Below, piece after piece: positions 59,001 through 64,000 of a stretch of 64,000 nucleotides of DNA; position 1 is the stretch's first letter, and each line of letters begins with the position of its first letter. The stretch lies in the NCBI RefSeq assembly GCF_057098645.1, contig NZ_CM169472.1; one strand, given 5' to 3'. A program made the position numbers.

Positions 59001-62000
59001 AGTTAATTCCCGGAGTGACTGGCAGGATGCCAATCAATGATCGGAAGCATGCCAAATCGTGATCGATTGTGATGCCAAACTGTGATCGGAGATGGATGCC
59101 AAATCATGATCGATTCGAATGCCAAACTGCGATCGATTCAGATGCCATTTTGCACGTTAACCATGGTTTTCAGCTTCTGGATGTTTGCCCGTGCCCTGGC
59201 GTTGCTGGTGGGCACGTTATGCGGCGCGGTCTGTACCAGAGAAAAATCACGCCGGAACTGATAAACAGGCATCACGCAATCATATTCGTAACCTTCACGG
59301 CGGTAAGTTACGCACCGTCCCGCCACGCCCTTAATCATTACCGTGCCGCCGTACTGGTCGCGGTAAATATCACCGCGCGTAAATTTAGGGTGAGTGTTGC
59401 CACTGGCAGTTAAGCCAGAATATTTAAGTTTCATTATTTTTATTCTCCGGTGTGCTGTTCTTTATATCTGTCGTGCAATAGATCTATTTTTTGCAGTTCC
59501 ATTATTACAGGCTCAAGTAGCGTTATTAATGCCGTGGCAATTCTTGATTTTTGTTTGTCGCGTTCATTATCTCCAAGCGTGTCAAGCCATATGCGCAATA
59601 TTTCCAGCATGTTTTCACTGTGAGAAAGTGCAAGAAATGCGCGGTCTATTGTTTCAAGGTAAATATCACGCATATTAATCCCCGTCCGTCGTTTTTCTTA
59701 AAACAACTTCTGTCACGAAATCAGCATAGTTAGCGGCAATATCAAGAATATTTAGCCCTGTATCCCTGTGCTCATCAGTGCAAAGAAAGAAAAAAGCCAC
59801 CAGCATAATTTCAGATATTGACGAAAGCGCATCAGCCGCATCATCAGGAACGCCGGAAAATTCCTGTTTCAGGGAATTAAAACGATCATCACGCATAACC
59901 CCGTTACTTTATTCGTACCCCTTATAATGGGGTGTTAGCCAGCCAGACCCGGCATGATTACTGCCCCCAGTCGTCCATGATCCGGGGGGTGATGTCACCG
60001 GGTCTGGTGGGGCGCTGGTAACCGCTAATAGGGGTCAGGTCAGGCACTTTTGCCGGGACCGTCTGTAACGTGGATGCCGGTACCTGCTCCCCGTGGTTAT
60101 CTGGTTAACCCATATACAAGGGAGACAGAATGACCGAATCCAGCGATTACGAATCCGTCCAGGTCTTTATCGGCGTTGATGTCGGTAAAGATACGCATCA
60201 CGCTGTAGCCATTAATCGTTCAGGTAAACGCCTGTTCGATAAAGCATTACCCAACGACGAAAACAAACTCAGGTCGCTAATATCTGACCTGAAACAACAT
60301 GGTCAGATACTGCTGGTTGTTGATCAGCCAGCTACCATCGGTGCGTTACCTGTCGCCGTTGCCCGCTCAGAAGGAGTCCTTGTCGGATACCTCCCTGGAC
60401 TGGCCATGCGCCGCATAGCCGACTTACACGCCGGTGAAGCTAAAACTGATGCTCGTGACGCTGCCATCATTGCCGAAGCTGCCCGTACCCTGCCTCACGC
60501 GCTACGCACGCTGAAACTGGCTGACGAGCAAATCGCCGAACTCTCCATGCTCTGCGGCTTCGATGATGATCTTGCCGCACAGACAACGCAGGCCAGCAAC
60601 CGTATCCGCGGCCTTCTGACCCAGATACATCCGGCACTGGAGCGCGTTCTCGGTCCGAGACTTGATCACCCGGCGGTACTCGATCTTCTCCAGCGATATC
60701 CCTCACCAGAAAAACTCGCTTCGCTGGGTGAGAAGAAGCTGGCAGCCCAGCTCTGCAAACTTGCGCCTCGTCTGGGTAAACGCCTTGCAGCAGACATAGC
60801 TCAGGCACTGGCCGAACAAACCGTCGTCGTTCCCGGCACGAATGCCGCTGCCGTAGTACTGCCACGTCTGGCACTCCAGCTCATCACGCTGCGTAAGCAA
60901 AGAGACGAGGTGGTGCTTGAGGTAGAACAGCGAGTTCTTGCTCACCCTCTTTACCCGGTCCTGACCAGTATGCCCGGAGTCGGTGTCAGGACCGCAGCCA
61001 GACTCCTCACCGAGGTCGCCTGCCGCGCCTTCGCCTCTGCCGCACATCTCGCTGCTTATGCTGGCCTTGCGCCGGTAACTCGGCGATCCGGCTCGTCAAT
61101 ACGCGGTGAGCATCCCTCGCGACGGGGTAATAAAGCTCTCAAACGGGCGTTGTTCCTGTCGGCCTTCGCCGCGCTCAGGGATCCGCTCTCCAGGGCTTAC
61201 TACACCCGCAAAATGAGTCAGGGAAAACGACACAATCAGGCGCTTATCGCCCTGGCGAGACGACGCTGCGACGTTCTGTTCGCCATGATGCGCGACGGGA
61301 CTTTTTATACCCCGCAGGCGTCATAACATGCTTGACAACTTAATAGGGGCACCCCCCATTTTCACAATCAGCAATAAGAATATTTTTAGCGTCATTCAGC
61401 GACCGCGTGGCGGTGTATCGGATACATTCCAGGGCGAACTGTGTCCGGTCTTTCTGTTCTTCTCCCTGCGCAAGCTCTGCAGTGCATTCAATATCGATAA
61501 GCGCGTGCATCAGCGTAGTGAGCGCGGCGGCTGCTGCGTCCGGTGTGGTTTTATTGCACATGGCACACCTCCTGACGAATACGGGCGGCGAATACAGCAA
61601 CACAACCGGACGGGCAACGGCTACGCGCTTCGCGTTCCGTCCAGGCGGTTACGTGGATGATTTGAGATTCTCCGGCACTCAGTGCCAGAAAACGCCACAC
61701 AAAGGCCGTTTGTGTGTGTACAAGGTGTGGTATATGATTTACAGCAACCATAACGGCTCCTAGTTTACGTTGTTGGTTAGAAGCCCTGCGAGTGGTAACG
61801 ACACTTGCGGGGCTTTGTCTTTTCATCGATTACCTTGATAAAGGTGTCAGCCACTATATTAGTAACGGGTGTCAGCCACGTCAATAGTGTTTTTCCGTTT
61901 TCTTGTGTGTATACTGTCAGCCACCTAATAACGAGGAAATCAGATATGGCAACAAAAGCAGTTAATGCAAAATCCAAAAAGCTTGAGGCTCGAGTACCAC

Positions 62001-64000
62001 ACGCAATAGCTGATGCTGTAGAAAATTTAAAGGAAGATGGCGAAAGTACAGGGCAATTTATCGTTTCGGCACTTGAAGGCGAGATCAAACGCCGCCAGCG
62101 CCGCAAGGCCAAAGAATCAGAATAATCACTATCAGCGCCGTGGTGTGAGGTATTACGGCGCATTGCTATGCAGGACAACACAATGACCGATAAAGAATTG
62201 ACCAAAACATTATCACCGGCACGGAAAAGACGGCGCAGAAAGATAGAGCATGAATCAGAAAGATTCGCGCCATGTGCTTTTGCCCTTGAGCAATTCCTTA
62301 AAGAATACAGGGAAAAGCGCTCATTGCAGGTATGGCAACGAACTGAACCAGACTGATTGCATTGCCCACCAGCCTGATAGCGGCTATCATCCCCGTGCTT
62401 ATGTTTGGGATCACACACACAAACGGCGCAGCGGGTTATCTGTTCAGAAAGGCGGCTCCATTTCGGGGCCGCTTTTTTTATGCCTGAAAAACCCCAATTT
62501 TGTGGTTTTCCAGTCTCACCAGGGCGAACGAATCCCCGCCCACGTTCTGGCGTATATTCAATCTTCATGGTTATAGCTCTGTGTTCAGATGATTGATGTG
62601 TGGCGGCTGTGTGCCGCCAGCGTGATTAATGAACTGCCTTGCAGCTATCCTTCCAGGCCAGAACCTCGGATAAAGACCAGCCAACGGAACGACCGCCAAG
62701 TTTACGACGTGATGGGAATTGTCCGGCCTTTTCCAGGCGGTAGCGACACGTACGGCTAAGGCCGGTTAGTTTTTCGCATTCTTTTTCACGTATAAACCGA
62801 TCAGTGCTTAACACTATTGCCCCCTTTCGTTTCTTAAAGAGTTATTTCGTGTTCTATTGCGTTGAGATGTGTCTGATTGTGTCAGGATGATTCAGAGTTG
62901 GCAAATGTTGAGGCCGTATGGTTTACAGAAAGAGGAATAATCAGGATAAAATCATTTAAATTCATGTTAATACAAAGACATAAAATATTGTTTCATGCCT
63001 TTTTTCTCGCTATTTAAAGAGTGATTCGCTAGTGTATAAAAAACCAGTGACACATTAAAAATCAGCTACTTATAAATCTGTACACTTTTTCGCCTCTTGT
63101 TCGTAGTTGTTCCGCATTGTTGCTCATTGTTGCACGTTGTATCTGTTCGCATATCCAGTATGCGCATACTGAAAAAATACGAAAAAAATTATTTTCTTCT
63201 GGCTACTGGTAGCGTGGTTACGTTTTCATGTGTTCCCGCCAGTATCCCTAACCGCTCCATCCACATATCCAGCGCATTGCGTTTAGCATCCAGATAACGG
63301 GAATGATTATAAACTCGCTGCATTCCTGGCATCTGGTGGCCTGTAAGCTGCTCCACGACATGCGGATCAACGCCTAAATCGTTCAGCATGGTTGTAAAGG
63401 TGCGCCGGATGTCATGCAGTGACCAGTGAGGATGATTAAGCCTCCTGTGCGCTAATCTTCCATACTGCGATACGCTGGCCTCCTGTTTCACTTCCCCCAG
63501 CAATAAGCCCGTGTGCCTGTTCTGCTCCACCAGCTGCGTGACGAACGGCAGGATCGCTTCCGGTATGGGCCGGAATATTGCGACCTTCGTTTTGCTGTGC
63601 TCCTTCGGAACGGTCCATAGCATTTCCGTAAAATCCCACTCCCCGATCTCCGATAGCCTCAGTTCTACCGTCCTGGCTCCGAAGACAATCAGGAGGCGGA
63701 TTAACGCGACGTAGTAAGGGGAAAATATTTTTTTGTCCAGTGCCTGCAATAATTCGCCAAGTTCTTTGTTACTTAAGACACGTTCGCTTATATCCGGTTT
63801 TTTCCCAACGTCCGCCACGTTCAGATCGTCCAGAACGTTGCTGATTGCATAGCGCCGCCTACGGCAGAACTTAAGCGCCTGTTTGCACGCCTGTAGCACG
63901 AATCCGGCAGTAACAGGCGTTCGCTTTGCCACCTGGTCAAAACAGGCCAGCCAGTGCCGTAGCTCGCATTTATCCAGCGGCATAGCACCAATCTGCTGTA

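Follow-up and report, generated by a model that had tools for sequence, protein, structure and literature searches.

A predicted ribbon-helix-helix regulator and three putative operators in a capsid-forming phage satellite island

Described repressor circuits and the locus compared with them

The immI region of phage P22 combines the Arc and Mnt repressors with an antisense RNA, sar, and would be the closest functional analogue of the locus considered here, with CopG of plasmid pMV158 as a mechanistic model for promoter occlusion. The locus is part of a satellite, a phage-inducible chromosomal island (PICI), at the right end of a 64,000-nt stretch of DNA (RefSeq assembly GCF_057098645.1, contig NZ_CM169472.1; this whole stretch is called the window below). 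It comprises a gene for a 59-amino-acid (aa) protein, here called the regulator, and three 11-bp sites lying between this gene and a divergent leftward operon. The regulator is predicted to be a ribbon-helix-helix (RHH) protein, and it is likely that its dimer binds the three sites and represses both the leftward operon and its own gene.

Like P22 immI, the locus would have small (~50–80 aa) and autoregulating RHH repression, with operators in and at the start of close divergent promoters, and it has a predicted candidate for a short antisense RNA directed against the first controlled gene at its ribosome site. There are two repressor genes in immI and one here; the immI operator is a single 21-bp element of abutting subsites, whereas the 11-bp sites of the locus are three and stand apart, with spacings of 25 and 45 bp; and the controlled gene is that of an antirepressor in a phage rather than of an Icd-like protein in a satellite. 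No significant sequence similarity is found between the two.

The Stl repressors are much larger helix-turn-helix proteins, inactivated by binding a helper-phage protein. In position and presumed role, Stl/Rpr from the pathogenicity islands found in Staphylococcus aureus (SaPIs) is nonetheless like the regulator: it adjoins the integration module, is transcribed away from the replication/packaging operon, and silences the island (PMC6092414, PMC9638917). The regulator differs in fold and in its length of 59 aa, and the induction of its islands has been published as AlpA-dependent. Where Gram-positive PICIs have their master repressor, these islands have the regulator, which shares neither its fold nor, apparently, its induction logic. 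The founding paper on the Gram-negative islands describes them as transcribed in one direction and calls it unclear whether they have a global repressor (PMC6092414).

CopG resembles the regulator in being a short (45 aa), autoregulating RHH repressor with a pseudo-palindromic element over its promoter, but its gene is on one transcript with the target gene, and as a tetramer it occupies just one 13-bp element (PMC2724298), whereas here the operon is divergent and the sites are dispersed. Omega (pSM19035), ParG, and ArtA (pSK41; PMC2777438) are RHH proteins reading several short units, direct or inverted, in promoters, as proposed here. They differ in acting at several promoters and/or in centromere binding, with more numerous and abutting repeats, in contrast to the single control region and three spaced sites of the island.

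YlcI (prophage DLP12) and YnfO (prophage Qin) of Escherichia coli K-12 belong to the same NCBIfam family as the regulator (NF041551), are also small, and have the same strand-helix-helix sequence pattern; no functional characterization of either was found in the papers searched. K-12 ylcI is likewise divergent from its neighbor, the terminase-like nohD, across the cos region (DLP12, locus L063, 5252–5835). Its context differs, however, being beside cos/terminase in a lambdoid prophage with no GTG-N5-CAC triplet seen upstream, and its product is 20% identical to the regulator. K-12 YlcI matches Pfam DUF3950 (PF13132) at E 1.9e-20, a domain with no match in the regulator at E ≤ 1 or among its relatives' families at E ≤ 10. 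A short CATCTAC repeat is present upstream of K-12 ylcI. Literature searches on YlcI, YnfO, and DUF3950, and on PICIs together with RHH, CopG, or Arc, turned up no functional study, and no paper assigning the regulator gene a function was found in the literature searched.

The regulator gene, its sites, and their variation across loci

The elements of the proposed control region are as follows.

61946–62125, plus strand: regulator gene (ATG at 61946, TAA at 62123–62125), encoding a 59-aa predicted RHH DNA-binding regulator of the YlcI/YnfO family
61844–61854, plus strand: putative operator O1, GTGTCAGCCAC, covering the predicted +1 region of the leftward promoter
61869–61879, plus strand: putative operator O2, GTGTCAGCCAC, filling the spacer of the leftward promoter and abutting its −35
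61914–61924, plus strand: putative operator O3, CTGTCAGCCAC, overlapping the −10 TATACT and +1 of the regulator's own promoter
61856–61884, minus strand: predicted leftward promoter of the main operon (P_left), with −35 TTGACG (61884 to 61879), a 17-bp spacer, and −10 TAATAT (61861 to 61856)
61910–61915, plus strand: predicted −10 TATACT of the regulator's promoter (P_right), the sole −10-like element before the regulator's Shine-Dalgarno sequence

The 10-mer TGTCAGCCAC occurs exactly three times on the plus strand, at 61845–61854, 61870–61879, and 61915–61924, with no further exact copy on either strand of the window. Since any given 10-mer should turn up about 0.12 times in 128 kb, chance does not account for three of them in a span of 80 bp. 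When one mismatch is allowed, the window contains eight copies (3.85 expected) including the three exact ones, the other five being scattered and at chance level; with up to two mismatches, none is found between 61925 and 63800, that is, from the third repeat to the integrase gene. The true repeat unit is 11 bp long, GTGTCAGCCAC at 61844 and 61869 and CTGTCAGCCAC at 61914, and forms an imperfect palindrome of the form GTG-N5-CAC. All three sites fall within the 195 bp separating the regulator gene from the first gene of the leftward operon. P_left is the best promoter-like site of the region in a consensus scan, and the TTGA following O2 on the minus strand is also present in related loci. For P_right, a TAnnnT or CAnnnT hexamer is found at the same distance from the ATG in related loci, which supports its −10.

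The regulator (MATKAVNAKSKKLEARVPHAIADAVENLKEDGESTGQFIVSALEGEIKRRQRRKAKESE) has a Shine-Dalgarno sequence, GAGG, 9 nt upstream of its ATG and a basic C-terminal tail, KRRQRRKAKESE. Its residues 9–50 match NF041551 with 60.6 bits (cutoff 30), and its RefSeq label is merely "YlcI/YnfO family protein". An identical 59-aa protein (WP_000201456.1) is found in near-identical islands of E. coli PE164 and O157:H7. Database searches gave 88 relatives, from Escherichia, Salmonella, Pectobacterium, Proteus, Xenorhabdus, Serratia, Yersinia, Klebsiella, and others, and a scan of one genome per species gave 60 loci; where there is enough flanking DNA, the gene usually lies between alpA/int and the leftward operon. 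The regulator module is present in 836 of 5426 complete E. coli genomes, and in the prototype islands EcCIEDL933 and EcCICFT073, with the gene on the strand opposite to the one direction of transcription described for these islands. A tblastn search of 50,697 phage records gave no match, so this subfamily was not found among deposited phage genomes.

The original prediction, made from the window's sequence alone, had described a 59-aa plus-strand open reading frame (ORF) with an RHH-like N-terminus and a basic C-terminal tail, preceded by three direct repeats. The ORF, its tail, and the repeats are all as described, with TGTCAGCCAC at 61845, 61870, and 61915 and nowhere else in exact form in the 64 kb, and a DNA-binding fold is indeed predicted by the modeling considered below. 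That prediction had been staked on conservation of the ORF in related islands, and the ORF is kept from E. coli to Xenorhabdus. It had also taken the gene for the only plus-strand gene of the island, which is wrong, as a second small one lies at 62168–62356 (+).

Sites could be extracted from about 50 loci in more than 20 genera, and their layout is constant. From the left there is a hairpin, a spacer of about 20 bp, O1, a spacer of 11–24 bp, and O2 followed by NTCAA; then a T-rich stretch, a TAnnnT hexamer overlapping O3, the Shine-Dalgarno sequence, and the ATG. O2 is 77 nt before the ATG in almost every one of these loci, and O3 is 32 nt before it in the great majority. The site sequence itself is variable. 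At least 13 alleles were found, for example GTGTCGGACAC, GTGTTGAACAC, GTGGACTCCAC, GTGAATCGCAC, and GTGAAATACAC, each present two or three times within its own locus, with O1 the reverse complement of O2/O3 in several lineages. The outer GTG/CAC bases are kept in most alleles. Three sites changing in concert are hard to explain unless all of them must fit one trans-acting factor.

Site alleles go with a particular part of the regulator, its predicted N-terminal strand. Between proteins with identical residues 10–17 the mean site distance is 0.66/11, as against 4.43 for those with different strands, and it is 1.3 for pairs with an identical strand and at least eight differences elsewhere in the protein. 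By column, association with site identity is highest at residue 14, followed by residue 12. The regulators of the window and of Xenorhabdus are identical over residues 1–19 and share the site, while the rest of the protein has diverged and AlpA is 44–50% identical. Q12 and N14 are common to two otherwise unrelated pentapeptides, KQVNV and QQLNA, whose sites are almost alike, GTGAAT(A/C)GCAC, and variants with another N-terminal arm (MTRD...) have sites with the outer bases CTGG...CCAG. By alignment to Arc, residues 12 and 14 face outward on the strand, and their co-variation with the sites is indirect support for the sequence-specific binding predicted for the ribbon.

The cleanest control is a natural one. 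AlpA of CFT073 is 100% identical to that of MINF_7C and the Icd-like proteins of the two islands are nearly so, while their YlcI alleles have 59% identity and their sites differ; to judge from this pair of sequences, the sites follow YlcI and not AlpA or the Icd-like protein. The CFT073 allele has A12 and K14 and the central bases TGGCC, the window's allele K12 and E14 and TCAGC.

Different alleles also occur together in one genome. Co-resident islands differ in strand and site in X. mauleonii (L004, L023, L047, L050), X. innexi (L012, L020, L046), Y. pekkanenii (L006, L029, L032), and P. betavasculorum (L003, L044), and E. coli genomes have up to four copies of the module. This diversity, taken with the differing alleles of co-resident islands, suggests orthogonal "immunity types". 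In E. coli 2011C-3911 (L065, 1150–1552) there is a second hairpin module, followed by a perfect palindrome, TGTGTATATACACA, and an unrelated gene for a 59-aa RHH-like protein (..PFQFRLDPDLREKMEKA..); this double module suggests that regulator/operator cassettes are exchanged or stacked. Two loci with an SQTLAARV strand, from Enterobacteriaceae RIT693 (L025) and Cedecea neteri (L027), have a different upstream context with neither hairpin nor O1/O2, and possibly a single O3-like site, CTGTCGAACAG, left at the promoter.

The predicted fold and what weighs against it

RHH proteins fold only as intertwined dimers. In an AlphaFold2 model of the regulator monomer the N-terminus is a coil and two helices are predicted with confidence, and a Foldseek search with it against the PDB gave no match better than E 8.7. 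For these reasons a linked-dimer model was built, in which two copies of the regulator are joined by a 30-residue Gly/Ser linker, an artificial fusion, with a matching alignment. Both copies are predicted to have a strand at residues 10–18, helix A at 19–28, and helix B at 35–59, with block-mean pLDDT (predicted local distance difference test) values of about 91–95 over the folded core. The modeled topology is beta-alpha-alpha, and the N-terminal strands of the two subunits pair as an antiparallel ribbon. Among solved structures the model is similar to RHH proteins, the best match being TraY and the second best single-chain Arc.

An hhalign comparison puts the regulator's strand in register with residues 6–28 of Arc, with regulator residues 12, 14, and 16 aligned to Arc Q9, N11, and R13; against CopG, too, the register of the strand is correct. 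These are the base-contacting residues of Arc. Residue R16, the partner of Arc R13, is more than 90% conserved among relatives, and residues 13, 15, and 17 are hydrophobic. We conclude that the regulator is most likely an Arc/CopG-like repressor and autoregulator, with DNA binding as a prediction.

Several results weigh against this reading. Besides the empty monomer search, the prediction of the dimer, though specific, was made on a forced fusion through the 30-residue linker. Sequence profiles do not place the regulator in any curated RHH family: it has no Pfam match at E ≤ 1, 48 relatives searched against Pfam at E ≤ 10 gave no significant RHH family (best sub-threshold E at least 0.0007), and a PDB sequence search with the family profile gave nothing at E ≤ 10. 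The hhalign probabilities are low (Arc 11%, CopG 5%), and PHROG "Arc-like" families match weakly (E 0.09 and 0.34). At the locus, the sites are spaced at 25 and 45 bp, more widely than the abutting subsites typical of Arc, MetJ, and CopG; P_right has a T-rich upstream tract with no recognizable −35; and a long stop-free frame on the opposite strand overlaps the entire regulator gene. Among loci, the strand type SQKIQARA is found with either of two site types. Because the loci are related by descent, a correlation with site distance (Spearman 0.42–0.54) is seen whichever segment of the protein is taken; this test is therefore non-discriminating, and the per-column and class analyses given above were needed.

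A role other than repression for a regulator bound to the same sites is unlikely. It might be an activator, a TraY-like architectural or excision cofactor, or a ParG/omega-like centromere binder: TraY is its best structural match, members of the family have weak Pfam matches to CB_ParB_C, and the wide, non-abutting spacing of the sites together with a long basic helix B could allow DNA to be bridged. Sites in a promoter spacer and over a +1 and −10 are, however, in classic repressor positions, only three sites are present, and no gene for a partner ATPase is found.

The proposed switch, its neighbors, and the opposite strand

As an RHH dimer in the manner of Arc, Mnt, and CopG, the regulator would read GTG-N5-CAC with its N-terminal beta-ribbon. 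Given the position of O2 in the spacer of P_left and of O1 on its start, occupancy of these two sites should silence the satellite's replication/packaging operon; occupancy of O3 would limit synthesis of the regulator itself, and the three together would keep the integrated island silent. CopG bound over promoter elements blocks RNA polymerase (PMC2724298), and by analogy the positions of O1–O3 are ones where a bound protein would exclude it. What the computation shows is the gene with its predicted fold, and the sites, which keep constant places on promoter-like elements and co-vary with strand residues. The layout is that of a PICI master repressor, with the regulator adjoining the integration module, divergent from the replication/packaging operon, and having sites over both divergent promoters; unlike the arrangement in SaPIs, int and alpA point toward the regulator and do not share its strand.

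AlpA sets a limit on how this is read. It is required for induction of the islands (PMC6092414; bioRxiv 10.1101/2022.09.08.507074; bioRxiv 10.1101/2025.02.11.637232), and its overexpression alone induces EcCICFT073 and EcCIEDL933, both of which carry the regulator gene (PMC6092414; bioRxiv 10.1101/2025.02.11.637232). As overexpression is sufficient, the regulator is not an Stl-like lock opened solely by a phage protein, a further point against a simple repressor model; it more likely sets a silent state that AlpA overrides. Binding, repression rather than activation, the stoichiometry, and the manner in which helper-induced AlpA overrides the block are inferred. The original prediction's divergent switch over the leftward operon is supported by sites that lie on promoter elements and hold their positions in about 50 loci. 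Its "master repressor" stands as far as the repressor or switch layout goes, while "master" goes beyond what was found, given induction by AlpA overexpression alone.

The neighboring features of the island are these.

61551–61751, minus strand: gene for a 66-aa Icd-like protein, first of the leftward operon (NCBIfam NF033153, E 1.2e-17; the RefSeq annotation of relatives agrees)
62168–62356, plus strand: second small gene (orf2), 62 aa (phrog_21027, E 1.6e-15; annotated on the same strand in relatives)
62446–62479, plus strand: intrinsic terminator of the two-gene plus-strand unit, a 14-bp stem followed by U7 (−21.7 kcal/mol, z −3.8)
62626–62814, minus strand: alpA, convergent with the regulator operon (Pfam PF05930, Phage_AlpA, E 5e-17)
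63189–63983, minus strand: tyrosine integrase gene; the listed start is an internal ATG, and the gene is longer than this ORF
60130–61326, plus strand: IS110-family insertion sequence (IS) with its transposase on the plus strand, inside the early leftward operon
56615–59033: IS21-family element (istA/istB), between the DUF4222 gene and the helicase gene

The island, from about 46400 to 64000, is beside phoPQ (phoPQ side, 44228–46359). EcCICFT073 occupies the same chromosomal place, between roxA and phoQ, and has the same module with a different regulator allele. Despite this position, the window's island has packaging genes of the capsid-forming, EcCIEDL933-like type (L066 and L067 compared). 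The gene set (a DUF4222 gene, helicase, PerC, HK97-type capsid, protease, portal, TerS, and TerL) identifies it by sequence as a capsid-forming PICI satellite. The IS21 and IS110 insertions have probably crippled this copy. AlpA is the activator of Gram-negative PICIs (PMC6092414).

The second small gene is probably co-transcribed with the regulator; their common terminator is much weaker on the minus strand (−12.3 kcal/mol, z −1.5). The pair raises the question of whether the regulator is the antitoxin of a type II toxin-antitoxin system, with orf2 as toxin and the repeats serving autoregulation alone. RHH folds are found in many antitoxins, O3 lies over the promoter of the pair itself, and the genes are in the classical order, the small DNA-binding one being followed after 43 bp by another small gene, with one terminator for both. 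By tblastn, however, orf2 was found only in E. coli loci, while the regulator and its three sites are universal, and in Xenorhabdus alpA lies within about 220 bp of the regulator. Neither protein has a PADLOC or Pfam match to a defense, toxin, or antitoxin family, and two of the three sites are on the divergent promoter, where a toxin-antitoxin pair has no need of them. With no conserved partner gene and no toxin match, this interpretation was rejected as quite improbable. An orf2 motif, EHESERFAPCAF, is common to otherwise different proteins in related islands.

The strand opposite the regulator is open over a considerable length.

61777–62568, minus strand: stop-free frame of 263 codons, antisense to orf2 and the regulator gene and extending across all of O1–O3 and the hairpin

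In the window this frame starts just after alpA and runs for 263 aa from its first ATG (282 stop-free codons), with its third codon positions aligned to those of the regulator; in CFT073 it has 433 codons. It was followed in the window and in L003–L062, L064, L065, L067, and L068, and is open for 92–414 codons in 39 of 39 loci examined. In the intergenic stretch of about 190 nt, the three frames have 5.58, 5.18, and 0.68 stops per locus, and 30 of 40 loci have no stop at all in the low-stop frame. Often it runs on without a break into the Icd-like gene. The Prokaryotic Genome Annotation Pipeline (PGAP) labels one fragment "BRO-N" and annotates fragments as pseudogenes in relatives; PGAP and published maps put a gene on the island strand at this place (bioRxiv 10.1101/2025.02.11.637232), and this ORF may be behind the description of the islands as unidirectional.

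Such openness could mean that the long ORF is the real gene and the 59-aa ORF its antisense shadow, which is very improbable. Of the six frames, that of the regulator has the lowest ratio of nonsynonymous to synonymous polymorphism (pN/pS 0.365, against 0.474). The 59-aa ORF belongs to a curated family with members in other contexts and has a confident RHH model and its own Shine-Dalgarno sequence, promoter, and terminator, whereas Pfam found no domain in six long antisense ORFs, which are unconserved and of low complexity outside the overlap. Both could be translated. The antisense frame may be a real overlapping gene, or it may be kept open so that read-through from alpA stays translated.

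That the repeats are binding sites of AlpA, with the small ORF incidental, is scarcely credible. AlpA does activate island genes (PMC6092414), and Xis/AlpA-type proteins often bind direct repeats, but the repeats do not track it: islands with 100% identical AlpA carry different repeats, and the window's repeat is shared at 44–50% AlpA identity and not at 62–66%. There is also no copy upstream of alpA (61925–63800, up to two mismatches), though AlpA is reported to autoactivate, and the candidate was rejected on both counts. Equally implausible, and rejected, are iterons of a replication origin bound by primase or helicase. The repeats are short and direct and lie between genes in AT-rich DNA of an element that replicates, as would suit iterons. 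But they number only three and keep constant places on promoter elements, the same regulator and sites go with different replication proteins (a RepA-type helicase in L001, a DUF927 protein in L002), and the described location of PICI origins is 3′ of the replication gene (PMC6092414).

Beside the repression proposed for the regulator there may be a second control, by RNA.

61733–61824, plus strand: candidate cis-antisense small RNA, with −10 TATGAT at 61733–61738, a start near 61745, and a length of about 80 nt (61745–61824)

Its first stem-loop has an anti-Shine-Dalgarno CUCC in the loop and covers the start codon of the Icd-like gene, and a terminator hairpin (61780–61816) is followed by a U-run. 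The fold in the window has −35.5 kcal/mol (z −4.9). Of 42 distinct sequences, 40 give a more stable hairpin as plus-strand RNA (G·U pairs 95 versus 18 for the other strand; Wilcoxon p 2e-8). An alignment of 37 sequences has compensatory changes at 15 of 24 pairs, and in the −10 (TAnnnT) both A and T are invariant throughout it, though codon contexts differ. The RNA matches no Rfam family: a scan of 55000–64000 at E ≤ 1 gave nothing. P4-type CI/C4/isrK immunity RNAs have been reported for some PICIs (PMC10111431); with the scan empty, they were therefore not detected in this region. As a candidate predicted from these features, 61745–61824 looks like P22 sar, lying antisense to the Icd-like gene at its ribosome site, and that gene is the presumed target of both the repressor and the antisense RNA.

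Joined to the repression already proposed, these features allow a more speculative picture, which is possible though doubtful: a three-layer bistable switch, of a kind undescribed for Gram-negative PICIs, made up of an allele-diverse RHH repressor serving as satellite immunity, a cis-antisense RNA, and convergent AlpA-driven transcription. The RNA would block the ribosome site of the first operon gene. Transcription driven by AlpA would converge on the repressor gene, its stop-free frame keeping the transcript translated and so escaping Rho; this read-through would silence the repressor gene and dislodge the repressor from its operators. If true, such a switch would explain how AlpA alone can flip the island on, and why 30 of 40 loci have an antisense frame with no stops from the gene through the operators to the hairpin.

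Meaning for the satellites and the YlcI/YnfO family

Gram-negative PICIs, capsid-forming ones included, are widespread. The regulator, with binding as predicted, most likely gives those of E. coli a repressor absent from the published work searched. If the gene does encode a repressor, it would supply the missing "off" component of the PICI circuit, and its deletion or an allele swap would give a direct handle on induction by AlpA. The uncharacterized YlcI/YnfO family would thereby gain a fold and a function, and the roughly 14 natural strand/site pairs would be a ready-made recognition code for engineering RHH specificity. For the biology of the islands, a repressor of this kind would suggest that they are sorted into orthogonal specificity groups able to share a cell.

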